DNA from: Trichodesmium erythraeum IMS101
Lineage (GTDB): Bacteria; Cyanobacteriota; Cyanobacteriia; Cyanobacteriales; Microcoleaceae
NCBI RefSeq assembly: GCF_000014265.1
Contig: NC_008312.1
Location: forward strand, 2,400,001 to 2,432,000
Reading direction: 5' to 3'
DNA length: 32,000 nucleotides
Shown here: positions 1 to 27,902 of the stretch, piece by piece
Layout: every line of letters begins with the position of its first letter
Numbering within the stretch: the first letter of the stretch is position 1
Made by a program: the position numbers and the translations under genes
The notes under the pieces: model-generated
The model's database searches: none
Told to the model about the DNA's origin: nothing
Seen by the model: the letters and a program-made list of their open reading frames with translations, nothing else

Positions 1-650
1 GTTAGTTTATCAGCCCTAATACTGTCACGATATTTTCTAGAAACAGACGCTTTATTTAAACTATTTGCCAAAACTCCAACAGCAGTACCACCAAACTCTA
101 AAGTTCCTAACATTGCCTCTTGATCTATCCCTTTTGCACCCCCAGAAATTACATTAATACCTTCAGACGCACAAACTTTTCCAACTTTTTTTGTATATTC
201 AACTTCTTCTTCATTAATATCACGAGAACCCACTATAGCTAATCCACCCTTTTCCAATAATTCTATATTTCCTACACCATAAATAATTACAGGAGCCAAA
301 TATTGCAGATTCTGTTTCCATTTTATAGGATAATTTTGGTCACTTCTTGTAAGTACCCATAAACCTTGGTTCACCCACTTTTCCAGAGTAATAGCTAAAA
401 TTCCACCTCTTTCCAATAGAGCCACTAACCGCTCATAGTTTAATTTTTTATCATTAATTTTTGGTAGTATATCTAATCCATTTTTACTTAGTAAATATCC
501 TGGTCTAACTTGATTTTTAATTAAAAAATTAGCAACTATATTATACTCAATTAGAGTTAAAGGTTGTGGCTGTATATTTCTATTTTGACCAAAACTAGCA
601 CATAATAATAAAGTCACTTGTGCATCTGAAGATAAAACATGATTAAGCAT
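1..650 (-). CDS. DprA/Smf-like DNA-processing (Rossmann/SLOG) protein; first 216 codons only, the 3' end lies beyond the window start
   Basis: Absent from the supplied ORF track because it is open at the window edge. My reverse-strand translation from the ATG at 650 gives MLNHVLSSDAQVTLLLCASFGQ...NYPIKWKQNLQYLAPVIIYGVGNIELLEKGGLAIVGSRDINEEEVEYTKKVGKVCASEGINVISGGAKGIDQEAMLGTLEFGGTAVGVLANSL... This matches the DprA core pattern (YP..L....P..L...G, IVGSR, SGGA.GID..A, GG.T..VLA). There is no in-frame stop down to base 1. Confidence 0.7.
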   Translation of the reverse strand, partial: MLNHVLSSDAQVTLLLCASFGQNRNIQPQPLTLIEYNIVANFLIKNQVRPGYLLSKNGLDILPKINDKKLNYERLVALLERGGILAITLEKWVNQGLWVLTRSDQNYPIKWKQNLQYLAPVIIYGVGNIELLEKGGLAIVGSRDINEEEVEYTKKVGKVCASEGINVISGGAKGIDQEAMLGTLEFGGTAVGVLANSLNKASVSRKYRDSIRADKL

Positions 651-830
651 TTTTATTGGATAATTTTTGAGCAGGTATCTCTATTTTATTATTTAGCAAA
701 AAAACATAGTTGAAAGGAAATAAATTCACATAACAATATTCAAAAAAAAGAATCTACTTAGGATGTGCTTTCTAAATCTTTTTAAGAACTAGGAGACCCA
801 AACCTAAACCCCTTATACCATTTCACCTAA

Positions 831-978
831 GTCAAAAGTCAAAAGTTAAAAGTTAAAAGTTAAAAGTTAAAAGTTAAAAGTTAAAGTTTAAAAGTTAAAA
901 GTTAAAGTTTAAAAGTTAAAAGTTAAAAGTTAAAAGTTAAAAGTTAAAGTTTAAAAGTTAAAGTTTAAAAGTTAAAGG
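831..978. repeat. Heptanucleotide microsatellite (GTTAAAA)n, about 21 units, with GTCAAAA and GTTAAA+GTTTAAAA variants
   Basis: Read directly: gtcaaaagtcaaaagttaaaagttaaaag... The period is 7, and 6+8 variants keep a 14 bp register. It lies in the spacer upstream of the DprA-like start. Confidence 0.95.
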
Positions 979-1791
979 TTAGGTTTTTCCGGCATAAAAC
1001 TTTGACCCTACAGTAATTTTAGGAAATTATTTGATATCTAAAGTTTTAAACTATTTATAATATTATTTATGACATTATTTTTGACCCTTAGTGTTATAAG
1101 AGTAATTTTTTAACAAAGGGGTAAGTAATCACTATTATTCAGTATAAAATATCAACAAAAGTATATTTGATTTTATACAATAACATAGCTAAAAATTTCT
1201 TCTAGCCTTCATCCATTCATCTTCTCAAATTTTTTTATCAACTTTAATATCAAAGATAAAAAATATACCCTTATAAGTCTCTAACCCCTTCTAAGAAAAA
1301 AAAGAAAGTAAGTAAGTAGAAAAGTTATATTAAACTGACTTAAGTTTGAACATATAATTTATAGAAGAATTAGTTGGATATATTTATGCCTAAAACTTTC
1401 TGCTATAGTTATCAAAAAAATACTAATACTAATTTAATAAACATCTATCATACTAATTTTTTTTGAAGTCAGACTACACATACCTTAACATTTTAGTTTT
1501 TAGACTTACAGCTAATTTTGGACAAATGATGTACAGGGTCAATAGTAAAAATCATGTAATGCAGGTATCTTACCCACGTAGGCGTACCTCATAAACCTCA
1601 AATATGCTGTAATAAATTACTCTTACAAATTTTGTTTAAGTTAATCAAATTTATATTGCACTTTCTTAACTAGAGAAGCACAGGAGTAGGTAGAGACCTT
1701 ACATAAAACCTCCCTAAAACATTTATACAATTAACACGCTTTTGAAATACTAATTATCAAAAAAAACTATTGGTACAATATTAATTACTAA

Positions 1792-2667
1792 ATAATTAAA
1801 ATTTTATCCAAGAATAACATTTTTTTTTAAATTGGCATCAAACTGGTTATTCTCCATACCGAAAACCAGACACTTTTTCCATCAAAAAAATACTCAAGCC
1901 TTTATAGCTTAATACCTTAATATTTTATGCATTCAACATAATTAAAATTTTATCCAAGAATAACATTTTTTTTTAAATTGGCATCAAACTGGTTATTCTC
2001 CATACCGAAAACCAGACACTTTTTCCATCAAAAAAATACTCAAGCCTTTATAGCTTAATACCTTAATATTTTATGCATTCAACATAATTAAAATTTTATC
2101 CAAGAATAACATTTTTTTTTAAATTGGCATCAAACTGGTTATTCTCCATACCGAAAACCAGACACTTTTTCCATCAAAAAAATACTCAAGCCTTTATAGC
2201 TTAATACCTTAATATTTTATGCATTCAACATAATTAAAATTTTATCCAAGAATAACATTTTTTTTTAAATTGGCATCAAACTGGTTATTCTCCATACCGA
2301 AAACCAGACACTTTTTCCATCAAAAAAATACTCAAGCCTTTATAGCTTAATACCTTAATATTTTATGCATTCAACATAATTAAAATTTTATCCAAGAATA
2401 ACATTTTTTTTTAAATTGGCATCAAACTGGTTATTCTCCATACCGAAAACCAGACACTTTTTCCATCAAAAAAATACTCAAGCCTTTATAGCTTAATACC
2501 TTAATATTTTATGCATTCAACATAATTAAAATTTTATCCAAGAATAACATTTTTTTTTAAATTGGCATCAAACTGGTTATTCTCCATACCGAAAACCAGA
2601 CACTTTTTCCATCAAAAAAATACTCAAGCCTTTATAGCTTAATACCTTAATATTTTAAGCATTCAAC
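1792..2667. repeat. Tandem array of six head-to-tail copies of a 146 bp unit, essentially identical
   Basis: The unit start ataattaaaattttatcc recurs at 1792, 1938, 2084, 2230, 2376 and 2522, giving a period of exactly 146. The only difference I saw is tattttaagc versus tattttatgc in the last copy. No unique spacers separate the units, and no ORF of 60 aa or more lies on either strand. Confidence 0.97.
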
Positions 2668-2845
2668 TATTAGCAGTTAGCTCTAAACTTTTCCTAGGTC
2701 ATGCCAAGCAAAAAAATGAAACTTAGCTAATGATATTTTCAGTGTCAAACTTTTAATTCTTCTGGGAGAATAACTCCTCATTCTAGCTAATAACTAATAC
2801 CTAAAAGCTAAATGCTTACCTCCCAACCTCAGTCTTCTTTGTTCC

Positions 2846-4948
2846 TTATTTAAATCTATTTATTGCTAAAGCCAATGGAAAAACTTTACCAGAACCAGCA
2901 TTTCGTAAAAGCGCCGCAACAACAGTAAAAGTCCATCTTGAGTCTACAATATCGTCTACTAAAAATACATTTCCCCTAATTCCCTCCCAATTATAAACTT
3001 TAAAAGCACCATCTAAATTATGAGCTTGTTGGTAACTATTAGTCATGTCTTTTTGTAGTGAAGTCTGACGAATTTTTATAATACATGGAACAAAGGGTAA
3101 ACCTAATTTTTTAGCAAGACGTTGAGCAAAATTAGGAACAAGTTCCGGATGTGTTAAAGAGGGAATACAAGTAACCCAAGTGGGAAAAGGTTGAGGCTGC
3201 CAACGTTGAATCATATCGTATGTAGCTTGAACTAAGCTATCCTCAAAATGATTATCTTTATACTTACCTTTTTCAACAAATTGGCCCCAACCAGCATCAT
3301 TCCAAATAGAAAGCGATCGCCCAATTTCTGCTTGTAAATCTTTAGATATTTTGCCTGTTAAATTATAAGTTAATAAAGCATTCTTCCGCCAGACTTTCCT
3401 CGTCTCAATAATTTGTTCCCTAGTTCGTAAAAATTGTACAGCTTCTGTCACAAACTTTGAGGAAACATTCCCCGGTAAAAGTGGTTTTCCTAAGCAAATA
3501 GCACATTTACCACAAGGGCTAGGATTTGGGTCATCTAATTCTTTTCTCAGAAATTGCATTAAACATTCTTGACTGTGCATATAATCCAACATTCGATCCT
3601 GTTCTTGATGGCGTATTTCATTCAATCTTGCTATTTTTTCTGTGTCCGTTTGATAATTAATTGGGGTAGCATAATACTTTGACTGTATTTTTTTTATTGG
3701 GGATGGAGTTTCGATAGATAATAACTTCAAAACTTTATTTATTTGCCCATTAGTAAGATTCAACTTTTCCTCTAACATTGGAACAGAAAGACCATCTTCA
3801 GCTTGATTTAATGCATCCAAAATTGCCTGATTATGAGCTTCTGGAGGAAAAGCAGTTTTAATAAAATAATTAGTAATTTCTTTATCTTCTTCACCACTTA
3901 GAAGAATACCATAGGCATTTTCTACTGCCCTACCAGCACGACCTACTTGTTGATAGTAATGTACTACAGATCCAGGACGTTGATAATGAATAACAAATCC
4001 TAAATCTGGTTTATCAAAACCCATTCCTAGAGCTACAGTTGCTATTAATGCTTTAATTTCATTATTCAATAATTGCTGTTCTAATTCTTCTTTCTCTTCC
4101 GTATTTTTCTTACTATGATAAGCTGCTACATTTATTCCTTGAGACTTCAACCAATTAGCAACTATTTCCGTATCTCTCACAGTTAAAGTGTAAATAATTC
4201 CACTGCCAGGAATATTAGGTAAATGTTCTGCTAACCATCCTAAACGATCACAATAAGATGGCAAATAAATATTTTGTAATTGGAGGCTATCTCTAGTTAA
4301 TAAACCCCTAAATATTTTCAGATTTGCACCTAGTTGAACAGTAATATCATCCACAACTCGATTATTAGCAGTAGCAGTAGTAGCAAGCACAGGAATATTT
4401 TTTGGTAAGGCTTGTAAAATTCTCGCAATTCTTCGATAATTAGGACGAAAATCATGTCCCCAATCAGAAATACAGTGAGCTTCATCAACTACAAATAAGC
4501 CGATATTTTTAGCTATATAAATTAAAATATTTTCTCGGAAGTTTTCATTAGCTAATCTTTCAGGAGAAATTAATAAAATATCTACTTTTCCTACCATTAA
4601 ATTATTTTCTACTTTTTCCCATTCTTCCTTGTTACTAGAATTAATTGTTTGAGCCCTAATTCCAATTCGTTCGGCAGCAGCAATTTGATTTCGCATTAAT
4701 GCTAAAAGTGGGGAAATTAATAGAGTAATACCCTTACCTTTATCCCTAAGTAAACGAGTAGCTAAAAAATAGACAAAACTTTTACCCCAACCAGTACGTT
4801 GCACAACTAAAAGACGGCTTTGATGTTCCGTAATAGCTGCAATAGCCTCCCATTGACCATCACGAAATTCAGCTGTGGAATTATTTAAAGCCCGCCTTAG
4901 TAATGATAATGCTTCTTTTTGAATCATATTAATTTTTATATTAAACAC
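2846..4948 (-). CDS. RecQ-family DNA helicase fused to a C-terminal ComFC-like / type-I phosphoribosyltransferase-like domain
   Basis: The 700-aa ORF carries RecQ motifs: TGWGKS (Walker A), VDEAHCISDWGHDFRP, ATTATA, YQQVGRAGR and the Cys cluster CGKCAIC. The last ~110 aa read as ComF/PRTase: TCIPS..FAQRLAKKLGLPF..RQTSLQKDM..NLDGAFKV..GNVFLVDDIVDSRWTFTVVAALLRNAG. The track start at 4948 is a GTG. The ATG at 4927 (MIQKEAL...) is the more likely start. Confidence 0.85.
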   Translation of the reverse strand: MFNIKINMIQKEALSLLRRALNNSTAEFRDGQWEAIAAITEHQSRLLVVQRTGWGKSFVYFLATRLLRDKGKGITLLISPLLALMRNQIAAAERIGIRAQTINSSNKEEWEKVENNLMVGKVDILLISPERLANENFRENILIYIAKNIGLFVVDEAHCISDWGHDFRPNYRRIARILQALPKNIPVLATTATANNRVVDDITVQLGANLKIFRGLLTRDSLQLQNIYLPSYCDRLGWLAEHLPNIPGSGIIYTLTVRDTEIVANWLKSQGINVAAYHSKKNTEEKEELEQQLLNNEIKALIATVALGMGFDKPDLGFVIHYQRPGSVVHYYQQVGRAGRAVENAYGILLSGEEDKEITNYFIKTAFPPEAHNQAILDALNQAEDGLSVPMLEEKLNLTNGQINKVLKLLSIETPSPIKKIQSKYYATPINYQTDTEKIARLNEIRHQEQDRMLDYMHSQECLMQFLRKELDDPNPSPCGKCAICLGKPLLPGNVSSKFVTEAVQFLRTREQIIETRKVWRKNALLTYNLTGKISKDLQAEIGRSLSIWNDAGWGQFVEKGKYKDNHFEDSLVQATYDMIQRWQPQPFPTWVTCIPSLTHPELVPNFAQRLAKKLGLPFVPCIIKIRQTSLQKDMTNSYQQAHNLDGAFKVYNWEGIRGNVFLVDDIVDSRWTFTVVAALLRNAGSGKVFPLALAINRFK

Positions 4949-6150: not shown

Positions 6151-7660
6151 TAGCATAAGGATAACTTAGTTGACAATTTACAAGTTTTACAGTCCCCAAT
6201 AACTCAGTTATTCTCAGTCAAATAAGTCAAAAATTAAATTTATTCACAAGATCTAAAAATTTCTTAATGACCGTTTAAGTTAATTGATAATAGCCCTAAT
6301 TATGTCCTGCAGGAAGTAAACCAAGCATATAAATACTCTTAAAACAAATACTCAGGACAAATATCATTGACTGAATCAAAAAATAAAATCAAATAAAATC
6401 AAATAAAATAGGTTCTCTCAACTCATGTTAACTTATATCAAATTTAAGTAATCTAAACCTATTCGGACTCAAAATAATAAATATCTATTCTATCCTATTT
6501 ATCCTACATTCCGCACAATAAAATTTAGTCCCTCACACCCTCCCTCAGCTATTATGCCTAAGGGAGGTTTATTGCTATCCCTAGCTCTGATGCCAGTTCA
6601 TATTTCATTAGATACCCTACAATTTTTTGAAGGAAGGTAAAACTTAATCTTAGTCAAACTCCTTTCTTAGTTTTCCCGTTTTTTTGTCTCAGATACTCAC
6701 CCATAACTAATTAATTAATACAATAATAACATATATATTCAAAAAAATAAAACAAACAAAAATACCAAATTCTAGAACTATTCTTTAAACCAACTTTTTT
6801 TGTAAAACATAATCATAAAAATCGGAATAATATTAACTTATTCAATAGCATTATTTTAGCTAATTTTATAAGTAAAAAACTATATCTATTAATTTCGATA
6901 TGAGTCTCAAATTCTTAGTTTATATCTATTAGTTTCGAGATAATTATCAATTTATTCCGCTGCAAAGTTAGCATAAAAAGTTGAGTATAAGTTAACAGCT
7001 TGCTTACTTCCTGAACATTTTTTAACATAGTACCGTTTATTTATGTCCGACTAATTACTAAATCTAGTTTAGACACGAAGTTAGTTGATACACCAAAGAT
7101 TATTTATTATTAAGACTAAAAAAACAAAACTAGAAAACAGACTCAAATTAAAGATACACGTACTTTAGCCTCAAAAAAATATCAATCATAAATTAACAGC
7201 AGTTTTAGGTATTTTAAGAGCATCAACATAATTATCTTATTTAGACTAACCTTATTGATACTTTTTTCTCCCAGAAAATTTATAAATCACACTATGAAAC
7301 TGTATTCATAATTATTCTCATTTAACTATCTTCTTAGAGCTTTCTGATTAAATATAAAATCACTAATATACAAAGATTTATTTTTTTTGCCTTGAAAAAA
7401 TACCTAGTTTTTCCTCCTTCAAGCTCATGCATATTAGCCTTTTACCCACCGCCATGGCAGAAAGCAGCAGGGGCAAATATATCCAACTACATCCTCTATA
7501 AATTTTCTGTTTCTCTCTACAGATATTACATGCAAAGTTCTTAGTTACTCCCGCGCACAAGCAAAAAAAAGTGGCGCAACAGCCCCTCAAAAATCAATTC
7601 CCAGAAGAAAGCTCAGTAGAAATATCAGCCCCTAAAAGGCAGAAAATATGTCACATTAAC

Positions 7661-7828
7661 TAGATTTCCTATTTTGAACATATTCTTTAGTCTTAGATCA
7701 ATAATCAATCACTTTATTATATATCGGGTCTATAAATAATTTTCTAGATTTCCTATTTTGAACATATTCTTTAGTCTTAGATCAATAATCAATCAATTTA
7801 TTATATATCGGGCCTATAAATAATTTTC
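7661..7828. repeat. Direct tandem duplication, 2 x 84 bp (82/84 identical), spanning the stop codon of the rca-like gene
   Basis: tagatttcctattttgaacatattctttag... starts at 7661 and again at 7745. Copy 2 contains the last 9 codons plus the stop of the 7801..9072 ORF. Copy 1 repeats them downstream of the gene. Confidence 0.95.
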
Positions 7829-9072
7829 TCAACTATCCGTCGCTTCACATTCCCATCAATACCAATCAAACGAACATAATCATTTTGATGTTTAACTAAA
7901 CAATTTTCTACAGCATTTATCACCTCTTTTACTTCCCCATTCTCTATTTTTCCACAACTTTTCCATGAACCAGTTTTATATCTACGTTTATCTGCATATT
8001 CCATCCCAATTTTTCCACCATCTTCGAGAATTTTTTGTATTTTTTCCCTCACTTCTGAACTAAGATTACTACTTTTAATACTATGATTAATCCGATTTGC
8101 ATTTAACTTATTTTCCGTAGTTACTTCGGGAAATAATCCATTAGAATTTGGCGTAATATTTTCTCGTTGACTTGTTTTAAAAACACCAAACAATCGAGAT
8201 TTATTATATTCTTCTACTAAACCCAATTCTCGAATACGTTCTTGTTCTCCAACCATAATTTTTCCATACTCTAGAAGACGGGAAACATTAAAAGTAGGTT
8301 GAGGAAAATCGGGAATCTTTTCTACAGAATTTACTACCCGCCTAGAAATTTTTTCTATTCCTACTTGGTGAATAAAATCACGAATTTGTTCATCATATAT
8401 CCGACTTCGTAAGGCACTAAAAAAATCGATAGCCTGGTCAGAAAATTCATCTATTAAATTATCAATATCTCCTGTAGAAAGTTCATCTGTTTTAAATATG
8501 CTACCTACTATGCCAACTCTATCTTCTCTATTTGGTTCCCAATAAAATTTCTCCATTCGACCATCTCTAATTAAAGGCGCATAAAGAGTAGAAAAATCAT
8601 TTCCAGTCACAATAATTGGTATTCGATGTAAGGGAGTTTCATCGTAGCTGCCTGGTAATTGTACATTTGTAGGGTTATCAGCAATATTCATTAAAGTAGC
8701 ATTTACTAATTGAGTATTTACCGTATATTGAGTACCCCCATCAAATCTACCAGCACCTGCATCTAAGTCATTAATAAATAAAGCACACATTCGACCTTGA
8801 ACTTTAACTTTTTCTGACGCTTCTCTATAACGTAGACGTAATAAACGTGCAGGATCTCCCGCATCTTTACTTTCTAATTCTCCACCAGATATTGTGACAG
8901 GTTCTATTCCCATTTTCTCAAAAACTAATTGGCATTGAAATGTTTTTCCTTCTCCTTTTCGTCCGTGTATTCCTATTATTAAAGGTACCCTTATTCTGGG
9001 GATTTCTAAGAAGTTTTTGGTAATATGTACTGCTAGTTTATCTATGAATCTAGGTGATATATAATATGGCAT
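7801..9072 (-). CDS. rca: Rubisco activase-like AAA+ protein with a C-terminal RbcS-like (SSUL) domain
   Basis: MPYYISPRFIDKLAVHITKNF...PLIIGIHGRKGEGKTFQCQLVFEKMGIEP..GELES..AG.PA.L.R.RYREA is the Rca AAA+ N-terminus and Walker A. The C-terminal ~90 aa (IGMEYADKRRYKTGSWKSC...VRLIGIDGNVKRRIVEKIIYRP) resembles the Rubisco small subunit. Confidence 0.88.
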   Translation of the reverse strand: MPYYISPRFIDKLAVHITKNFLEIPRIRVPLIIGIHGRKGEGKTFQCQLVFEKMGIEPVTISGGELESKDAGDPARLLRLRYREASEKVKVQGRMCALFINDLDAGAGRFDGGTQYTVNTQLVNATLMNIADNPTNVQLPGSYDETPLHRIPIIVTGNDFSTLYAPLIRDGRMEKFYWEPNREDRVGIVGSIFKTDELSTGDIDNLIDEFSDQAIDFFSALRSRIYDEQIRDFIHQVGIEKISRRVVNSVEKIPDFPQPTFNVSRLLEYGKIMVGEQERIRELGLVEEYNKSRLFGVFKTSQRENITPNSNGLFPEVTTENKLNANRINHSIKSSNLSSEVREKIQKILEDGGKIGMEYADKRRYKTGSWKSCGKIENGEVKEVINAVENCLVKHQNDYVRLIGIDGNVKRRIVEKIIYRPDI

Positions 9073-9322
9073 TTATTTTAATTTTTTTAGTATAAATAAT
9101 GGTTTGATACAGATTTAAAACAGATAACAATTAAGCACAAGGAAAGAATATCTAGATAATTACTCAGAAAAATTAGAAATAATCCTGTACATTTAGGTTT
9201 TGATTTGAAATAAGTAACTATACTACTGCAATATAATGAATCATTAAGCTTTGAGTTGATCATACTACTCATATACAATTAATGCAGTAAGGTATTTAAT
9301 TAATATAAATGAATTAGTACCT

Positions 9323-9380
9323 ATCTTCAGGAATTTTTCCCAGTCACAATACAGAGATATTTTATTTTGTGAATCTCCCA
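9323..9380. repeat. Copy 1 of a 58 bp dispersed repeat containing the inverted repeat TCACAA-N19-TTGTGA
   Basis: atcttcaggaatttttcccagtcacaatacagagatattttattttgtgaatctccca aligns without gaps to 9597..9654, identical at 51 of 58 positions. Confidence 0.85.
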
Positions 9381-9596
9381 TAAATAAATAACTGTTTTTT
9401 CTTGATCAAATCTTTCTATCTATACCTCCTCAGCAGAATATACCAAGAACTGAATTTTCATTTTATGAAGCTCATTCTGGTTAATTAGATTTGCTCTTCC
9501 ATTATCACAATTTTTGTGATATAACTAATTATGTAACTATATACATATATGTATGACTTTTTATTCAATATAGTTAACTAGCTCAGAGAACATCAA

Positions 9597-9654
9597 ATCT
9601 TCAGGAATTTTTCCCCGTCACGATACAGAAATATTTCATCTTGTGAAGCTTCCA
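9597..9654. repeat. Copy 2 of the 58 bp dispersed repeat
   Basis: atcttcaggaatttttccccgtcacgatacagaaatatttcatcttgtgaagcttcca. Both copies lie upstream of the rca-like gene. Confidence 0.85.
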
Positions 9655-9950
9655 GAGATTAATATAAGGTAGGTATTTAAACCAATCTTAATTAGATGAA
9701 AAATTGCCCCATGGGTGCAATTTCTCTGTAAATTAGATAAGTCTGCTCTGTAGTATAGTTTTGAGAGTGAGAGAAAGAAATCAATTCCACCCATGCGATC
9801 GCGAATGTGGTAAAAAAGAAAGTCAATGTAAAAAGTACCAAATGAGTAGTATAAAATGTAAAGTTGTTGAACTGTTCAAACAAACTAAAAAACCCAATTA
9901 ATTTAGTCAAAACTGGGTTTTTACAGAAAAATCAATAAGTATAAAAATAA

Positions 9951-10151
9951 TTAAAGAGGCTGTCTAGAAATCAACTTTTCAAAATGAGCTTGAGTTTGTT
10001 GCAACATTTGCTCACGACCATCTTTTATTTGATTAAGAGAAGGAACTAAATTACGAGCATGTAAAGTCATGTGAAATTGTAAATCAGCCACATATTCACT
10101 AACATCTTGATGTAAAGAACAAGATGGATACTTTTTAATTTCTGAATTCAA
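9951..10151 (-). CDS. Hypothetical small protein (66 aa); weak call
   Basis: Track ORF with a TTG start and no recognisable motifs. Its composition is less AT-skewed than neighbouring spurious ORFs. A G9 run on the coding strand lies 8 nt upstream of the start. Confidence 0.25.
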   Translation of the reverse strand: MNSEIKKYPSCSLHQDVSEYVADLQFHMTLHARNLVPSLNQIKDGREQMLQQTQAHFEKLISRQPL

Positions 10152-10249
10152 AGTTTTATCCCCCCCCCTAAATTATTTGAGTTTGTTTATGATCACAAAA
10201 AGTACCATAGAAATTCTTCCTCTGTTGAAGTTTAGCAATGAAGCTTAAT

Positions 10250-10540
10250 ATTTTTCATTGACATCCTCCATGCACTAAAGTGAGAGAACTTGCAACATCA
10301 CAGAGAAAGTTTCCTCTTTCTTTAAGTCGGCTTACTTAACTTGAGTTTCCCCATCTAAACAAAGACCAATTTCTCGAACTTGTTTTACTTTCCCCGTGCA
10401 CCAAATAAGCTGATATTTTCCTTAATGCTGAAATGAGGATGTTTTTTTGCTACTTTCTCGTCTCTCTTTGCAACATATAGCTTTGTATTTAACTCAGCTT
10501 CGTACTTAGTATTTTTTGAACTTAAGAATCACCTTTTTTT
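10250..10540 (-). pseudogene. Frame-shifted ORF fragments, possibly the C-terminal relic of an IS200/IS605-family TnpB-type gene
   Basis: My reverse-strand translation gives ..KYEAELNTKLYVAKRDEKVAKK in one frame. After a frame shift it gives ILISALRKISAYLVHGESKTSS..*..LTLVHGGCQ*. This loosely resembles the (C..CG..)DRD.NAA.NIL...GH tail of TnpB proteins. The match is from memory only, and the region has several stops. Confidence 0.25.
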
Positions 10541-11250
10541 CCAGTAGTCTTAGCTTGAAAGTTGCCATAAAATCTTTATATAGCTACCCAAGCTCTTTCC
10601 CAGTGAACAAACCTGGCCATATAATTTAGTTGTTTTGCCCAAGAAAAATCAGGGGGAGATGAGCTAATAAATATGCAATATAAGTTTAGGCAACCAATAC
10701 GACTAAAAATTGTTCTACCTATCTATGCTATAATAACAATTCCGTAAGTACAAATAGCGATATCTAACAGGTTCTACTAATTCTGGATGCCTTATCTTTT
10801 CATTTCATAGATGAATATAGATAAATATAAAAAGCTTGATTTTAGTATTAAGCAATAAAATTATAATCAATCAAACCTGCATATAAAGCTAATAGCATTA
10901 AAAACCCTTCAATAATTATAAGGATAAGGCTTGAGACCAATTCCCATCCGTTAATACTATACTTAGGCAAAACTTCATAAATTTAAGTAATTAACACGGA
11001 CTGAATAACTTGATGGCTAAATTGAGGCAAATTAATGTTAATTATTTTTATATTGTACCGAGCGAGATTGTATGCAACCCCTCTTTCCCTCCTAGGAAAG
11101 CTTAGGGACTAATATTACTGCACCGTCAGAGTAAGAGCTAAGTCCCCGACTAAAAATTTACGTTCAAAAGTTTTTGATGAATGGTACTAGACCCCAATTA
11201 TCGGAAAAAAAAATTATTCAAACAGTAAAATAACTATATCAAAAGGAATT

Positions 11251-11288
11251 GGGAAATGTTAAAAACTCTTCAAACACAAACATTTCCC
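11251..11288 (-). terminator. Candidate intrinsic terminator of the ndhAIGE operon
   Basis: A perfect 10 bp stem pairs gggaaatgtt (11251-11260) with aacatttccc (11279-11288) around an 18 nt loop. It starts 10 nt past the ndhE stop. On the minus strand it is followed by AAUUCCUUUU, so the U-tract is weak. Confidence 0.45.
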
Positions 11289-11298
11289 AGTGCTATGA

Positions 11299-11610
11299 TT
11301 ACCACTTTAATAAGTTAAATTCTTCCATATCCACCGTATCACGGTTACGATAAATTGCTAAAACTATAGCCAAACCCACAGCAGCTTCAGCAGCAGCAAC
11401 CGTCATGACAAAGACAGTAAAAACCTGACCTTTAATATTTTGAGAATCTAGAAAATTAGAAAAACCCATCAAATTCAAATTAACAGCATTGAGAAGTAAC
11501 TCAATAGACATTAGCACCCTAACTGCATTACGACTGGTAACTAAGCCATAAATTCCTATACAAAAAAGTGCTGCTGCCAACAACAAAAAATATTCCAGTT
11601 GTAATTGCAT
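11299..11610 (-). CDS. ndhE: NAD(P)H-quinone oxidoreductase (NDH-1) subunit 4L / NuoK
   Basis: [66 protein letters not shown] is canonical NdhE. The track ORF begins 5 codons upstream, at the ATG at 11625. Homologs typically start at MQLQ, corresponding to the ATG at 11610. Confidence 0.9.
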
Positions 11611-11650
11611 AAACTTATCAACCATTTCAATTTAACAAATTATTTTAACC

Positions 11651-12274
11651 CTATTTGATTTGAGCAGAACTTTCACCAAGACTTGAAACTAATTCACGAG
11701 GACGTTCTGGCAAACTTAAAACAGGTGTTTGAGATACATTAGTTGGTACTTCATCAGGCAAAATATCTCGACGAGCTAAAATAATAGCTCCCACCATTGC
11801 TATTAACAAACACACAGAAGCAAGTTCAAAAGGGAGTAAAAAATCTGTAAAAAAGTGTTTACCAATTAACACAATTGAACTTTCTCTAGTAGCATTTCCA
11901 ACAACAGGAATTGACCAGGAACTAGACAATACCATTGTACTCAGTAAAGCAAACAAACCAAAACAAACTAAACCTGTAGCTACCTTTCTAAACCAAGCAT
12001 TAGGCAAAGCTTTAAAATCTTCTCGTTTGTTTACAAGCATAATCGCAAATAAAATCAGGACATTAACAGCCCCAACATAAATCAAAACCTGGGCAGTAGC
12101 TACAAAGTCAGCATTTAACAAAAGATATAAACCAGAAATGCTCATAAATACTCCACCCAGCAAAAACGCTGAGTGGACAATATTAGAAAATAATACTACT
12201 CCCAAAGCAGCCGCAATCATCATTACAGCTAATATAACAAATGAAACGAATTGAACTCCTTGCGCTAAATCCAC
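11651..12274 (-). CDS. ndhG: NDH-1 subunit 6 / NuoJ
   Basis: The 207-aa polytopic membrane protein has NuoJ-type sequence (SAFLLGGVFMSISGLYLLLNADFVATAQVLIYVGAVNVLILFAIML). Its position between ndhI and ndhE fits the operon. The start codon is GTG. Confidence 0.88.
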   Translation of the reverse strand: MDLAQGVQFVSFVILAVMMIAAALGVVLFSNIVHSAFLLGGVFMSISGLYLLLNADFVATAQVLIYVGAVNVLILFAIMLVNKREDFKALPNAWFRKVATGLVCFGLFALLSTMVLSSSWSIPVVGNATRESSIVLIGKHFFTDFLLPFELASVCLLIAMVGAIILARRDILPDEVPTNVSQTPVLSLPERPRELVSSLGESSAQIK

Positions 12275-12393
12275 TTTTTATTCCTTTAGAGATACTTAAA
12301 CTTTGAATTATATTTTTTTAGCTGGTAGTTATTAGTTGGTCGTGGCTAAAAATCAATTTAAACCTCTCTAAACTAATAACTAATAACTAATAA

Positions 12394-13023
12394 CTATTTG
12401 TCTGTTATTTCTGCGGCTGTTTTTTCTGCGGCTGTTTTTTCTGCTTCTATTTGTTCCAGAATTTCTTCAGGGCGCAGACCAGCACGACGTGAAGTATGAG
12501 GAACTGTATGAGGGTCAATAACTCCTTTAGGCAAATAAGCTAGTTCTCTCATAGGAGTAACCATTGGGTCATTTGTCACCTTATATGGTAGTCTACCCAG
12601 AGCCACATTATCATAATTTAACTCATGGCGATCATAAGCTGCTAACTCATACTCTTCTGTCATAGATAGACAGTTACTAGGGCAATATTCTACACAGTTA
12701 CCACAGAATATACAAACTCCAAAATCAATACTGTAATGCTTAAGCTTTTTCTTTTTGGTTTCTTTGTTAAATTCCCAATCTACTACAGGTAAATTAATTG
12801 GACAAACCCTTACACAAACTTCACAAGCAATACACTTGTCATATTCAAAGTGAATTCTACCTCGAAATCTTTCAGAAGGAATCAGCTTTTCATAAGGGTA
12901 CTGTACAGTAACAGGCCGACGGCTCATGTGGTCAAAAGTTACAGATAAACCTTGACCAATATATTTCGCTGATTGAAAAGTTTCTTTTGCGTAATCACTT
13001 ACTTGTTTGAGGAATTTGAACAT
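12394..13023 (-). CDS. ndhI: NDH-1 subunit I (2x[4Fe-4S] ferredoxin-type, NuoI)
   Basis: Two CxxCxxCxxxCP motifs are present ([12 protein letters not shown] and [12 protein letters not shown]), along with the conserved N-terminus [21 protein letters not shown]. The C-terminal tail carries a duplicated AEKTA from a 15 bp tandem repeat. Confidence 0.92.
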
Positions 13024-15283
13024 GGTTTTGCTTTATAAAACTTAGAGTGACAATTTAAACTTTATTTGATGTTAGAGATAAATTTTGTTAGTTAACATCC
13101 TACTAATATTAAATTTTTACAACAACTATGCTTTGCTTCTTAACTCAGTATGTTGTCAATTTATCTTAACCAGAACTTACACAAAGGAAGTATATAGAGT
13201 GTAAATATATAAAACAATTACCAAAAATACACTATATGTAGTAGTACTCTGTAATTACTATTAAGGTTGGTTGTTTTGCAGTGCTCTCCTTCAAAGAAGC
13301 GCCCTATGGGAAAACTAATCAATATTACTAATCAATATTGAGGTTTAACACATAGATATGTTAACGTATCTTTCCTAAATAATTAAAGGTTAACCTTCAC
13401 CTCAGCCTAGAAGCATAGGGAGATTAAAGGCCCGAAGCTGCGATGCGGTTTAATATTTCTTATGCTGCTGCACCCACCCCAACCTATTCCCCCATTTCCT
13501 CGGTAGGAACGAAGCAAGATGGTTGATGCTTGCCCAGTGTGTGCATTTAATGTCTTAGGCTACCCGCTTTAGACTAAAATATTTGTTGGTGCATTTTCCC
13601 AAGCGGTCCTACTTACTATTCACTTTTAAGACAGAACTATTCCCTGACTCAAATTTCTAACTTTCCTTTTCTTCACCAACTAGAGCAAATTTGAGAAGTA
13701 GGTTCTCACCTCCTAATTACTCTAAAATTATGACTATATTTTTCTGCAATTCCATTAAAAATGTTCCTATGGGTCGCTAACCTAGATCACTAACCCACCC
13801 CTAATTCCTCCTGGGAGGCTAGCAAGAAGGGTTGCTTACTTTTTTGACTCCATATACATATCATACTTCTAAAACAATTTTTTGGAAGTTAGCTGAATTT
13901 CAACAGATAATTTATCTAGAAAATCAATTTTTATATTCTTAAGTTTAGGGTGCAATTTAGGAAGTTTCACTCGTGGATTTTTATACCTTTTAGATCCTTG
14001 AGTTTTTTTGAGATAATAATTTACTTAACTTTCGTGCTTCGTAACTTTTATATTTTACTGACATAACCTAGGAAAAAATCTTACTTTTTGATTTATTTCT
14101 TTATATAGTTTAAGAGTATCAATTTTTTGACCATGTACAGACATTGGATTAAGGCATCCTTAAGGTAGCAAAAGTTTTAATTCCTAAATAATTACTATTG
14201 TAAATTATCAGTTTTAGGCAAAATTTATGGTAAAGTTTTTAATACAAAAGTCAGAAAATATCTATTAGCTGAATTTTGGCAGCATTTTTAAAATTACTGC
14301 TTTATAATCTGTCAGATATTTAGGTTTAGTAATTACTTCCCTAGACAAAAATATTTTTAGTTTTCCTACTTTAGGATTGCTAATAACTTTATTTTAAACA
14401 ACTTTGAACCTTTATTTTGTAAATTTTGCAGGTTATTTTAAATTTTTAATCCATAAATTCAGGTACGATTACAAGTTTACCTTTTCTCTTATCTTTTATT
14501 AATTGAAAAAGTTTTTGAGCAACGAAAAGTTGTGGTTACTGAGAAACATATTTCTGTAGTATTCCGAAGGGAAATGCACCTAGGGTTTAAATCATTTAAA
14601 GATTGCTGCAATAGTAATTTAGAAACTTTTAATAACCATTCTCTATCTTCGGTGTTTTTAGCTTAAATAATCAACTATTTTTGTAGTGAGAGAGTTAACA
14701 GGCTTATTCTCTAGTAATTTATACTTTTCATAGTTAGAAATCTAGGCTATTACGTTAGAGAAAACGGACACAACCAAATAGTTTTGTGCTCTCGGTATTT
14801 TTTTCCTGTTTTTGGAGAGATACGATAGTTAAATAATTGCGAGTTATAATCTTAAACTTTAATAGCTTTTTAGCGTAACATATTTATTAGAATAAAATAA
14901 ACCAAAAACTCAGCCCAGAAGGGCAAAACTTTAGATACAATCTTTCGAGCAATAATTTAAAAAGCAGACAAGTATTGCTTAGACCTACTCCTGAGCAGAA
15001 AAATCTGTTTCTGATGATGGACTAGATACCCTAATTTCAATAAAAAACTTAATAGTAGTAACACAGAGTTTACTAGGGCTAAATTTAAGAGAATAAATGG
15101 CCAAGTTTATCTAACTAAATCTGCTTAAACATTACCTATAAGATGGGGTAGGCAACTACCAGTTGGCTGTATACCAACTAAAATTACAGAAAATTTCTTC
15201 AGGCAGTTGCGCGAGAAAAATCAACCTAGATTTTGAGGTTTAGGAATTCCTCGTTGTTCCTTATGCGCAATCTTAGGAGGATA

Positions 15284-19307: not shown

Positions 19308-19811
19308 TTACAGTCCGATAACATATTTTTGCCATTCTTTATTCATACCACTTTTAACATGTTTAGTTAATTCAAAGTAAAGACCACTGCGAGGTTTTCG
19401 AGGAGGGCAGTCCAAAATCATATTAGCTTCTTTTGGGGTCCGACTTCCTTTTTGTACATTGCAACGGACACAAGCCGTTACGAGGTTTTCCCAAGTATCA
19501 CCACCACCACGCGATCGCGGTATTACGTGATCTAAAGTTAAATCATCACCCATATAACCACAGTATTGACAAGAATGACCATCTCGGTGGAAAACATTTC
19601 GACGCGTCAAAGGAATATCTTTGTACGGAACTCGGATATAATAGCGCAGTCGGATGACTGTAGGTAAGGGAATATCTGGGAGAAGATATATTCCCTTATG
19701 TTCAATTTGCTCCGCTTTACCTTTGAGCAACAAGACGATCGCTCGTCGCCAACTCGTGATATTGAGCGGTTCATAAGAAGCGTTCAACACTAAAACATTG
19801 GCCATTGACAT
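19308..19811 (-). CDS. HNH endonuclease family protein (McrA-like small HNH)
   Basis: CQYCGY..LTLDHVIPRSRGG..TWENLVTACVRCNVQKG is a complete HNH/zinc-finger motif. The protein is 167 aa. Confidence 0.85.
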   Translation of the reverse strand: MSMANVLVLNASYEPLNITSWRRAIVLLLKGKAEQIEHKGIYLLPDIPLPTVIRLRYYIRVPYKDIPLTRRNVFHRDGHSCQYCGYMGDDLTLDHVIPRSRGGGDTWENLVTACVRCNVQKGSRTPKEANMILDCPPRKPRSGLYFELTKHVKSGMNKEWQKYVIGL

Positions 19812-22566: not shown

Positions 22567-23040
22567 TTATTGATAACCAAGGTCTGAGGGTAAATCAAGT
22601 TTTTGAGAAGCTTTGACCGCTAATTTATCACAGCGTTCATTTTCTATATTTCCAGAATGACCCCGTACCCAAGAAAATTCAACTTGATGTTTACTGCATA
22701 AATCTAATAATTTTCCCCATAGATCGGGGTTCATTGCTTTATCTTTTTTATTCCGTTTCCAACTGTTAGCTCGCCAACGTTTTGCCCAACCTTTTGTAAC
22801 AGCATCAACTATATATTTAGAGTCAGTATATAAATTGACAATTGATGGAATTTCTAGTTGTTCTAATCCTACTATTACTGCCATTAATTCCATACGATTA
22901 TTAGTGGTTAATTTATAACCTCCAGATAATTCTTGGCGTTTTTTCTCAGATAAAATAATTATACCATAACCACCAGGGCCGGGATTTCCACTACAAGCAC
23001 CATCAGTATAGATAGTAATTTCGGTTCTTTTTTCTGTCAT
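22567..23040 (-). CDS. rnhA: Ribonuclease HI
   Basis: ITIYTDGACSGNPGPGGYG, TNNRMEL, YTDSKY and W..VRGHSG...NE.CD are the RNase H catalytic DEDD-context motifs. The protein is 157 aa. Confidence 0.92.
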   Translation of the reverse strand: MTEKRTEITIYTDGACSGNPGPGGYGIIILSEKKRQELSGGYKLTTNNRMELMAVIVGLEQLEIPSIVNLYTDSKYIVDAVTKGWAKRWRANSWKRNKKDKAMNPDLWGKLLDLCSKHQVEFSWVRGHSGNIENERCDKLAVKASQKLDLPSDLGYQ

Positions 23041-24734: not shown

Positions 24735-27700
24735 CTAATATTTATCTTGATTTTGTTTTGATTCATTTTTCTCATTTAAAAATATTTGATAGTTTTTCAG
24801 AACTGTTTGAGTGTTGGGATGTTCTTCACCTAATGATTGTGTAAATATTTCAATAGCTTGTAGGTACAAAGGTTCAGCTGCTTCGTATTTTCCTTGTTCA
24901 CGATATAATTCTGCCAGGTTGTTGAGGTCTCTTGCAAGAGATGGATGATTTTCAGGGAGGGCGATTTTGTCGATTTCTATTGTTTGTAGATACAATTGTT
25001 CTGCAGCTTCGTATTTTCCTTGTGCATGATATAATCCTGCCAGGTTGTTGAGGTGTGTGGCTAATTGTGGATGATTTTCTGGGAGGGCGATTTTGTCGAT
25101 TTCTATTGCTTGTAGAAACAAAGGTTCTGCAGCTTCGTATTTTCCTTGTGAATGATATAATAATGCCAGGTTGTTGAGGTCTGTGGCAAGAGATGGATGA
25201 TTTTCAGGGAGGGCGATTTTGTCGATTTCTATTGCTTGTAGGAACAAAGGTTCTGCAGCTTCGTATTTTCCTTGTTCACGATATAATTCTGCCAGGTTGT
25301 TGAGGTCTCTTGCAAGAGATGGATGATTTTCAGGGAGGGCGATTTTGTCGATTTCTATTGCTTGTAGGAACAAAGGTTCTGCAGCTTCGTATTTTCCTTG
25401 TAACTTATATAATGCTGCCAGGTTGTTGAGGCCGCTGGCTATATTTGGATGATTTTCAGGGAGGGCGATTTTGTGGATTTCTATTACTTGTAGGAACAAA
25501 GGTTCTGCTGCTTCGTATTTTCCTTGTACACGATATAAATTTGCCAGGTTGTTGAGGTGTGTGGCAATACCTGGATGATTTTCAGGGAGGGCGATTTTGT
25601 GGATTTCTATTGCTTGTAGGTACAAAGGTTCTGCTGCTTCGTATTTTCCTTGTGCACGATATAAATTTGCCAGGTTGTTGAGGTGTGTGGCACGTTGTGG
25701 ATGATTTTCAGGGAGGGCGATTTTGTCGATTTCTATTGCTTGTAGGTACAAAGGTTCTGCAGCTTCGTATTTTCCTTGTAACTTATATAATGCTGCCAGG
25801 TTGTTGAGGCCGCTGGCTATATTTGGATGATTTTCAGGGAGGGCGATTTTGTCGATTTCTATTGCTTGTAGGAACAAAGGTTCTGCAGCTTCGTATTTTC
25901 CTTGTGAATGATATAATAATGCCAGGTTGTTGAGGTCTGTGGCAAGAGATGGATGATTTTCAGGGAGGGCGATTTTGTCGATTTCTATTGCTTGTAGGAA
26001 CAAAGGTTCTGCAGCTTCGTATTTTCCTTGTAACTTATATAATGCTGCCAGGTTGTTGAGGCCGCTGGCTATATTTGGATGATTTTCAGGGAGGGCGATT
26101 TTGTGGATTTCTATTACTTGTAGGAACAAAGGTTCTGCTGCTTCGTATTTTCCTTGTACACGATATAAATTTGCCAGGTTGTTGAGGTGTGTGGCAATAC
26201 CTGGATGATTTTCAGGGAGGGCAATTTTGTGGATTTCTATTGCTTGTAGGTACAATTGTTCAGCTGCTTCGTATTTTCCTTGTGCACGATATAATGATGC
26301 CAGGTTGTTGTAAATAGCTGCAATATCAGAATTATTTTTATCTAAACGTTTTTCAGCTATTTCTTTACCTTTCTCTAACCAAGGTTGTGCCAGTGGGTAC
26401 AATCCTTGACCTTGATAAAATGAGCCTAAGCTTGTAAAAGGTATAATCAAATCATCATCGCTCAAATATTCAGCCAAATTGTCTGCTATTTCTGTAATAT
26501 GAGGTATATCAATCTCAACTTCTTTAACTTGTTCTACTGTAATGTCATTGTTATAAGGAATTTTCTCTGCCGCACCTACAATTACCCGACAAAACTGAGA
26601 CTTCAACTGTTCTACTTCCTTCATTGCATTCAACTTATCTTGAAAATATCGACGTACTAATTGATGCAATTCATAAGTTCCCTGTGTTGTCTTTTGAATT
26701 AAATTTAAATCTAACAAAGTATCTTCCCTAATATCTTCCCAAGTTCTTGAATCTAATACATCAACTTTTTTTGGAGGCATCAATAATAACCATAAACGTG
26801 AAAAAGTAGGAAACCACCTTTGTATAATTCCTTTCTCCTGACTTTCATCTTTAGACAAACATTTTTCCACCAAATTCCAAGGTATAGGAGCCAATGCAAA
26901 AAGACTCAACAAACAGCCCAAATACCTTCCCCTTTCATCTAATTCATTCCAACTCAATTCAAAAGCAGCGGCTACTCCACGCTGTGCTGTCATTTCTCCC
27001 TGTGGTGGGTTCTGTAGCACCGAGAAATTTAAAGCTTGTTTTTCCAACTCTTGTATCATTCTTTCCAATGTCCATTCAGACCGCCTCTTCAGAAATCGCC
27101 CCACCAACTCTAATCCCAAGGGTAAATATCCCAACCATTCACAAAGTTGCTTTGCTTCCTCTATTTGTGTCCCTAAACGAGAATTGCCAATTAAGACCTC
27201 TAATAATTCTAAAGCAGAATCTTCATCCAAAACCTCCAAACGTAACTGTGAAAAAGATTCTGACAACCAATATTTACGAGTAGTAATTAATAATTTAAAA
27301 CGTTGTTTTTGTGGAGGTAAATACTGCTCAATTTCTTCATATTTATTAACATCATCTAGAACAATTAAAACATCTCCAGGTGGTTGCCAATTTGACCAAC
27401 AAAAGCTAATTCTTTCTTCTAAACTCCAATCTTCAGCCGGAAATAATCCTAATTGAGTTTGAGCAAAGCTTAATAACTGTTCTCCCACACTTCTTTCCCT
27501 AACATTTATCCAACAAATACCACCAGGATAATTCAACTCCTTTTCAGATAAAAGAGAATATTGAAGTGCTAATTCTGTTTTCCCAACGCCTGCCATACCT
27601 GTAACTACTGCTGTAATAGATACACGCTCTTTTTCCTGAAGTTGTTCATGTAAATTTTCGATATCTTTATCTCGACCAACAAATTTAACAGCACCAGTTC

Positions 27701-27902
27701 GTAATATATTTAAATTATTAGGAAACTCTGCTGGCTCACCCTTCCATGAAACATTTTTTGTGTCATTAATAATTGTCTTAGCAAAAGTTGAATTTACAAT
27801 ATTGCCTGAATTAACACCAACACCATGAGTCTCCTTAATATCAACTTTATCCTCAAAATTATCTGACATATTAACCTTGTTTATGATTTGGATTTTTGCC
27901 AA
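24735..27902 (-). CDS. NB-ARC (STAND) NTPase with a C-terminal array of 12 near-identical 42-aa TPRs; NLR-like
   Basis: NB-ARC motifs are GMAGVGKTELA (Walker A), VLIVLDDV (Walker B), KLLITTR and GYLPLGLELVG (GLPL). These are followed by repeats of NHP..A..LNNLA.LY..QGKYEAAEPL.LQAIEI.KIALPE. The likely true start is the ATG at 27869 (MSDNFEDKV...), by homology to the N-terminus of the upstream ORF. Confidence 0.9.
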   Translation of the reverse strand: MAKIQIINKVNMSDNFEDKVDIKETHGVGVNSGNIVNSTFAKTIINDTKNVSWKGEPAEFPNNLNILRTGAVKFVGRDKDIENLHEQLQEKERVSITAVVTGMAGVGKTELALQYSLLSEKELNYPGGICWINVRERSVGEQLLSFAQTQLGLFPAEDWSLEERISFCWSNWQPPGDVLIVLDDVNKYEEIEQYLPPQKQRFKLLITTRKYWLSESFSQLRLEVLDEDSALELLEVLIGNSRLGTQIEEAKQLCEWLGYLPLGLELVGRFLKRRSEWTLERMIQELEKQALNFSVLQNPPQGEMTAQRGVAAAFELSWNELDERGRYLGCLLSLFALAPIPWNLVEKCLSKDESQEKGIIQRWFPTFSRLWLLLMPPKKVDVLDSRTWEDIREDTLLDLNLIQKTTQGTYELHQLVRRYFQDKLNAMKEVEQLKSQFCRVIVGAAEKIPYNNDITVEQVKEVEIDIPHITEIADNLAEYLSDDDLIIPFTSLGSFYQGQGLYPLAQPWLEKGKEIAEKRLDKNNSDIAAIYNNLASLYRAQGKYEAAEQLYLQAIEIHKIALPENHPGIATHLNNLANLYRVQGKYEAAEPLFLQVIEIHKIALPENHPNIASGLNNLAALYKLQGKYEAAEPLFLQAIEIDKIALPENHPSLATDLNNLALLYHSQGKYEAAEPLFLQAIEIDKIALPENHPNIASGLNNLAALYKLQGKYEAAEPLYLQAIEIDKIALPENHPQRATHLNNLANLYRAQGKYEAAEPLYLQAIEIHKIALPENHPGIATHLNNLANLYRVQGKYEAAEPLFLQVIEIHKIALPENHPNIASGLNNLAALYKLQGKYEAAEPLFLQAIEIDKIALPENHPSLARDLNNLAELYREQGKYEAAEPLFLQAIEIDKIALPENHPSLATDLNNLALLYHSQGKYEAAEPLFLQAIEIDKIALPENHPQLATHLNNLAGLYHAQGKYEAAEQLYLQTIEIDKIALPENHPSLARDLNNLAELYREQGKYEAAEPLYLQAIEIFTQSLGEEHPNTQTVLKNYQIFLNEKNESKQNQDKY
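24825..26336. repeat. Intragenic tandem array, 12 x 126 bp (the TPR units), including a 5-unit-offset internal duplication
   Basis: gggagggcgatttt recurs at 24955, 25081, 25207 and onward with period 126. The 280 bp at 25313-25592 are identical to 25943-26222, an offset of 630 = 5 x 126. Confidence 0.95.

Follow-up and report, generated by a model that had tools for sequence, protein, structure and literature searches.

A 146-bp tandem array between psyrT-like and psyrA-like genes of Trichodesmium erythraeum IMS101: a probable, recently expanded intergenic minisatellite

The six adjoining copies of a 146-bp sequence found in Trichodesmium erythraeum IMS101 probably represent a lineage-specific intergenic minisatellite, or variable-number tandem repeat (VNTR), that has expanded recently and is likely to be nearly neutral. 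The array combines the properties by which VNTRs are recognized, namely, head-to-tail copies without spacers, non-coding sequence, and a copy number that apparently varies at a locus with conserved flanks. Judging from its sequence, it most likely has no dedicated function. The one sure effect of the array is the addition of 730 bp to a non-coding gap that was already long. The data come from a 32,000-nucleotide stretch of the IMS101 genome, here called the window, and from assemblies of related strains and populations that cover the same locus.

Structure and genomic setting of the array

Tandem Repeats Finder delimits the array as 6.0 copies of the unit with 99% matches, no indels, and a score of 1745 (Table 1). 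Direct comparison shows that units 1 to 5 are identical and that unit 6 carries a single T-to-A change at unit position 137, just as the original prediction had it: six head-to-tail copies with one substitution in the last of them. The repetition ends at both borders, and neither flank carries it on. An 82-nt piece of the unit matches the window 6 times, compared to no matches in 100 dinucleotide-preserving shuffles. The unit has a G+C content of 26% and contains all the motifs that had been listed for it: on the plus strand, the inverted repeat CTGGTT-N15-AACCAG (a hairpin of approximately -8 kcal/mol), followed by ACAC and then by TTTTT; on the minus strand, the hexamer pair TTGAAT-N16-TATTAA; and one run each of nine T and seven A residues. 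A further minus-strand pair, TTAAAA-N18-TAAAAT, is also present.

Several familiar classes of repeats do not accommodate this array. CRISPR arrays need repeats of ∼23 to 50 nt and unique spacers, whereas the 146-bp units abut directly, so the original exclusion of CRISPR stands. The same is true of its exclusion of a protein repeat: the period is not a multiple of 3, and all six reading frames are closed, with 7 to 12 stop codons per frame in three units. The longest open stretch in the array comprises 38 codons, and the sole call per unit in a small-ORF search is a TTG-started frame of 26 amino acids, so the array contains no credible ORF. The heptanucleotide tandem repeats of filamentous cyanobacteria, known as STRRs, are not a suitable assignment either, as the unit is 20 times longer than a heptamer and has a complex sequence.

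The array is located in a 2.2-kb non-coding spacer that separates two genes of the minus strand. Read along that strand, the locus consists of a gene for a helicase fusion, a 178-bp spacer, the array, an 810-bp spacer, a heptamer repeat, and a DprA-like gene. The helicase fusion, which joins RecQ and PRTase parts, matches the PADLOC PsyrT model over residues 3 to 690 with an E value of 2.4e-301. In an ALOHA metagenome-assembled genome (MAG) locus (L007), in which the helicase and DprA-like genes occupy positions 8001 to 10082 and 11464 to 13011, respectively, the orthologue of the DprA-like gene matches the PsyrA model with an E value of 1.1e-131. These matches bear out the labels given to both genes in the original prediction. 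The two genes are adjacent on the same strand, 2.2 kb apart, and are predicted to form a pair like PsyrTA (also referred to as RqlHI). PsyrTA is a toxin-antitoxin and anti-phage gene pair with a DprA-like antitoxin; attempts to delete psyrA in the systems tested did not succeed, perhaps owing to toxicity (10.1101/2022.05.11.491447). Other genes in the window encode a RuBisCO-activase-like protein, NdhA, NdhI, NdhG, NdhE, and citrate synthase.

The order of genes for a CTP-transferase-like protein, a Scy-like protein, the helicase, the DprA-like protein, and a DUF58 protein is kept in the loci from Trichodesmium, Dapis, and Okeania, and homologues of the helicase with ∼70% amino acid identity occur in Nostoc, Scytonema, and Coleofasciculus. 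The gap between the psyrT-like and psyrA-like genes measures 1.4 to 2.2 kb in T. erythraeum, compared to 214 bp in the nearest outgroup.

Table 1. Features of the psyrT/psyrA-like locus, in window coordinates
Feature	Position	Strand	Basis
DprA-like gene, 5' part; begins at 650 and continues past the first position of the window	1..650	-	Full-length orthologue in L007 matches PADLOC PsyrA
Heptamer repeat AAGTTAA (TTAACTT on the gene strand), ∼22 copies	829..981		Tandem Repeats Finder and sister strains
Distal unique spacer, array to heptamer repeat	982..1791		98-100% identical within the clade, absent outside
Tandem array, 6 x 146 bp	1792..2667		Tandem Repeats Finder and unit comparison
Boundary copy (unit 6, A at 2658), on the helicase-gene side	2522..2667		Unit comparison and related assemblies
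Proximal unique spacer, 178 bp, helicase stop codon to array	2668..2845		98-100% identical within the T. erythraeum clade, absent in farther relatives
RecQ-family helicase fusion with C-terminal extension (upstream flank)	2846..4927	-	Full-length PADLOC PsyrT match

The heptamer repeat is of the STRR type and has in common with the 146-bp array both its location in this spacer and its variability between strains. It ends ∼180 bp upstream of the start codon of the psyrA-like gene and comprises 21.9 copies in IMS101, 18.9 in a related scaffold (L023), 13.9 in each of two Tara contigs (L011 and L024), 9.9 in L007, and 6.1 in the MAG_R01 locus (L010). Its copy number changes independently of that of the array, and each of the two repeats is largest in IMS101, which could reflect relaxed stability or selection in culture. 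In two further scaffolds (L008 and L025), the heptamer repeat is the cause of assembly gaps.

Repeats of other kinds are found both in the spacer and elsewhere in the window. A short dispersed inverted repeat of 58 to 80 nt, with 71 to 78% identity, links positions 1349 to 1406 of the spacer with positions 7454 to 7511, a non-coding segment near the RuBisCO-activase-like gene, and a spacer segment at approximately 1520 to 1595 has a 78% match downstream of a TPR/trypsin gene in L007 and L008. An 84-bp sequence occurs twice, with 95 to 97% identity, at positions 7655 to 7869, where it overlaps the RuBisCO-activase-like gene (7801 to 9072, minus strand) at its 3' end; it is likewise present in two copies in L007, L011, L024, and L025, and a version with a 97-bp period is found in L010. 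A 126-bp repeat with 11.6 copies and 88% identity (24847 to 26310) lies inside an ORF on the minus strand (24735 to 27902) and encodes the 42-amino-acid TPR_10 repeats of a 1,055-amino-acid NB-ARC and TPR protein of the STAND type; unlike the 146-bp array, it is coding. Multi-kilobase stretches of the window (9073 to 11298, 13024 to 15283, and 6151 to 7800) contain no ORF of at least 80 amino acids, even between the ndh genes, in agreement with the published figure of ∼40% non-coding sequence in the IMS101 genome. Within one of these ORF-poor stretches, a conserved 66-amino-acid ORF is called in related loci (e.g., L007:2781-2981). Two minus-strand ORFs in the non-coding-rich middle of the window, one for a stand-alone HNH endonuclease (19308 to 19811) and one for an RNase H (22567 to 23040), may be remnants of mobile elements.

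Copy number and distribution in related genomes

The array was compared among contigs whose encoded helicase is identical or nearly so to that of IMS101; within the T. erythraeum clade, the helicase gene shows 98 to 100% nucleotide identity. A single copy of the unit is found in three Tara MEGAHIT contigs (L011, L012, and L024), a Tara scaffold (L025), the ALOHA MAG locus (L007), and a Logan contig (L002). The MAG_R01 locus (L010) has two copies, with two further substitutions in the extra one. In three scaffolds (L001, L008, and L023), the array is broken by a 100-N gap but a unit-unit junction is visible, indicating at least two to three copies. The IMS101 window has six, a count known from the window sequence only. 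Copy number thus appears to differ (one, two, gapped, or six) at an orthologous locus whose flanks are 98 to 100% identical, although the relatives were counted in short-read assemblies, in which perfect repeats can be collapsed. Because unit-unit junctions are present in four independent assemblies (L001, L008, L010, and L023), the tandem arrangement is not an artifact of any one of them.

The variant site orders these copies. In every related assembly, the unit that adjoins the helicase gene has A at this position, and this is the sole copy where there is only one, while every extra copy has T. Between strains, the unit shows 0 to 1 mismatches per 146 nt. This rate equals that of the flanking spacers, which argues against any extra constraint on the unit. 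Two contigs built from short reads (L004 and L005) terminate precisely 30 nt beyond the unit 6 variant, probably the position at which other copies would join it in a k=31 graph, and a contig from strain 21-75 (L009) ends in the unique spacer ahead of the array. Many runs of one Logan series (SRR32465992 to SRR32466020; L002 to L006) give contigs of ∼4 kb that encode the identical helicase and end in or just before the array, whereas L002 crosses a single copy. Should these runs prove to be RNA, they would indicate read-through that enters the array from the helicase gene.

Could the differences in copy number, or the six copies of IMS101 themselves, be products of assembly? The six copies might be unreal, or all strains might share a multi-copy array of which the one- and two-copy versions are short-read collapses. 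Perfect 146-bp repeats do exceed the k-mers and most of the reads behind the MAGs and contigs, and several scaffolds have N gaps inside the array. Moreover, the single-copy L007 and the gapped L008 carry the same helicase allele; they possibly come from one population, so that at least one of the "single copies" may be a collapse. Against this explanation stand the junctions seen in four independent assemblies, the two distinguishable copies in L010, and the independent variation of the neighboring heptamer repeat. In addition, MEGAHIT contigs of 23 to 28 kb from three Tara runs, as well as one scaffold, cross a single copy unbroken. Such contigs appear harder to dismiss as collapses, since a repeat cycle with good coverage would be expected to interrupt a contig. 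On balance, an assembly artifact appears very improbable as the general explanation.

Outside the T. erythraeum clade, both the unit and the ∼1.2 kb of spacer around the array are absent from L013, Dapis, Okeania, and another Trichodesmium MAG, all of which have the syntenic gene pair. The helicase (RecQ) gene of L013 shows 92.5% nucleotide identity, and the gap between the two genes is 214 bp in that locus, 760 bp in Dapis, and 992 bp in Okeania. Absence from outgroups and apparently free variation within the clade largely match what the original prediction had named as evidence against small-RNA and regulatory roles of the unit; this pattern deprives those proposals of support but stops short of refuting them.

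No further copy of the unit was detected elsewhere in the 32-kb window. An exact search of the genome collection with a 22-mer from the unit was negative; this search extends to the remainder of the IMS101 genome only if that strain represents its species in the collection. The IMS101 helicase locus is likewise missing from the protein scan of this collection, so the window is apparently masked in it; the same scan retrieved distant relatives of the helicase only and no named Trichodesmium thiebautii locus. Two different sub-patterns of the unit gave no matches in JGI metagenomes, nor were sub-patterns matched in viral contigs, and a blastn comparison of the unit with GenBank phages was also negative. 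A dispersed repeat or MITE family was rejected as an explanation of the unit, given that neither the window nor the collection scans yielded an additional copy.

Tests for RNA, promoter, and protein-binding functions

The original prediction envisaged the array as a battery of identical small RNA (sRNA) units, each with its own promoter or terminator, or else as a set of phased protein-binding sites, and proposed a search of Rfam. At gathering thresholds, the whole window has no match to any Rfam family. At E values of up to 10, the region from 600 to 2900 yields nothing for the array and only a chance-level match to ohsC (E value of 5.1) in the heptamer repeat. A tRNA/tmRNA scan was negative. 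Structures predicted for three registers of each strand of the unit had z scores of -0.7 to -1.5 and were no better than those of shuffled sequences. Promoter-like sites between 600 and 3000 number 14, compared to 13.1 ± 4.0 in shuffles, which is the chance level; the scan requires a final T in the -10 hexamer, which the minus-strand TATTAA of the unit lacks. No terminator-like sites were detected on either strand. The plus strand, which is antisense to the two flanking genes, carries the hairpin with its five T residues, and the promoter-like pairs are on the minus strand. Of the two substitutions in the extra copy of L010, one is in the hairpin stem and the other is adjacent to it, with no compensation. 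Finally, AA/TT autocorrelation shows neither 10- to 11-bp periodicity nor phasing of A tracts, so the idea of phased binding sites finds no backing.

Precedents for tandemly repeated sRNA genes exist both in this organism and in other cyanobacteria. According to Pfreundt et al. 2014 (PMC4143802), a tandem array of seven 736- to 973-bp units in T. erythraeum IMS101 yields its most abundant non-coding RNA, and its units have a mapped transcription start site (TSS) each, a northern-verified transcript of ∼260 nt, and an included duplicated gene fragment. Similarly to that array, the 146-bp array consists of near-identical non-coding tandem copies in the same genome and has no similarity outside its lineage. 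In contrast, the units of the former are 5 to 7 times longer, and the two sequences are not similar; the psyrT/psyrA-like genes on either side of the 146-bp array go unmentioned in the text of PMC4143802. The idea of an sRNA battery is modeled on NsiR1 of heterocystous cyanobacteria, a tandem array of sRNA repeats located upstream of hetF (Ionescu et al. 2010, summarized in PMC6596454). Conservation of the NsiR1 repeats extends to at least 19 other cyanobacteria, and these repeats have regulated promoters (PMC6596454). Unlike NsiR1, the 146-bp unit occurs in a single clade, in which many strains may have only one copy; neither promoter nor terminator signals in it exceed chance, and it matches no Rfam family.

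That each 146-bp unit is a self-contained transcription unit producing the same sRNA appears very improbable, in spite of these precedents and of the fact that 26.7% of T. erythraeum TSSs are non-coding. Each unit does have two minus-strand hexamer pairs and a hairpin, but promoter-like matches remain at the level of shuffled sequence, the TATTAA element is incomplete, and the hairpin with its T5 run is on the strand opposite to the promoter-like pairs, with no terminator-like site on either strand. The weak folds, the lack of Rfam matches, and the uncompensated changes in and next to the hairpin stem in L010 point in the same direction, as do the single copy in most field assemblies and the confinement of the unit to one clade. 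Further, no second repeat-derived set of TSSs is listed among the top-20 transcripts in PMC4143802. The sRNA proposal is thus left unsupported by the promoter, terminator, folding, and Rfam results, albeit not refuted by them, and the original suggestion of an element acting within a recQ-like to dprA-like co-transcript is in the same position. A different kind of function would be that of a cis-regulatory module of the psyrT/psyrA-like pair with variable copy number, made up of tandem promoters toward the antitoxin-like gene or of a pause or insulator in read-through from the helicase gene to dprA, so that the number of copies would tune the product ratio. The array is indeed flanked by full-length PsyrT and PsyrA matches, the promoter-like pairs face psyrA, and both spacer repeats differ between strains; the failure to delete psyrA in tested systems would imply that the downstream gene must stay expressed across the 1.4- to 2.2-kb gap. 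However, relatives keep the gene pair with spacers of 214 to 992 bp that lack the unit, one-copy alleles are apparently common, promoter and terminator signals do not exceed chance, the unit shows no extra sequence constraint, and no phenotype has been tied to copy number. Such a module must be regarded as highly unlikely. Equally little credence is given to the broadest functional scenario, in which the unit would be active, either as a gene for an sRNA or as a promoter or pausing element directed toward the psyrA-like gene, and its copy number, together with the heptamer repeat, would act as a contingency switch. In a polyploid cyanobacterium without CRISPR-Cas, this switch would set the proportion of toxin to antitoxin made by a chromosomal PsyrTA-like system.

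Origin of the probable minisatellite and its significance

The interpretation of the array as a near-neutral minisatellite suggests a simple history. The starting point would be an ordinary AT-rich 146-bp stretch of the spacer between the psyrT-like and psyrA-like genes in the T. erythraeum clade. A single duplication would have produced the boundary copy, with A at position 2658, and an extra copy with T, and in the lineage of IMS101, the T copy may then have multiplied until five identical copies were present. We infer that this largely neutral expansion proceeded either by replication slippage or by unequal recombination with gene conversion between sister or multiple chromosome copies. The identity of the units would be maintained by the recency of the expansion and, possibly, by gene conversion among many genome copies. 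Polyploidy, with multiple genome copies, has been reported in Trichodesmium (Sargent et al. 2016, cited in PMC6068237), and Trichodesmium genomes have been described as rich in repeats (PMC9950141). The expansion in IMS101 appears to be recent, as its 730 bp of extra copies contain no substitutions, compared to two in the single extra copy of L010. This, along with the apparent presence of only one or two copies in sister strains, supports the original view of a very recent amplification or homogenization.

Intergenic minisatellites of this kind are familiar from other bacteria, in which VNTR loci, such as the mycobacterial MIRU-VNTRs, serve for MLVA typing. The array has much in common with these loci: its copies are arranged head to tail with no spacers, it is non-coding, its unit falls within the usual range of tens to a couple of hundred base pairs, and its unique flanks are conserved. 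Furthermore, its copies are nearly identical apart from a variant boundary copy, and their number apparently differs among near-identical strains. Unlike the MIRUs, the 146-bp unit does not belong to a dispersed family; it is also at the long end of the size range, and its copy numbers come from short-read assemblies rather than from sizing. With these differences, the array is probably a further case of the familiar class of bacterial VNTRs.

The practical value of the array is modest. Together with the heptamer repeat 800 bp away, it could serve as a strain marker for T. erythraeum cultures and blooms that can be sized by PCR, and its locus is a point of breakage or collapse in assemblies made for this species from short reads. 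The array would matter more if its copy number affected expression of the PsyrTA-like pair, of which there is no indication here. [quoted passage not shown]
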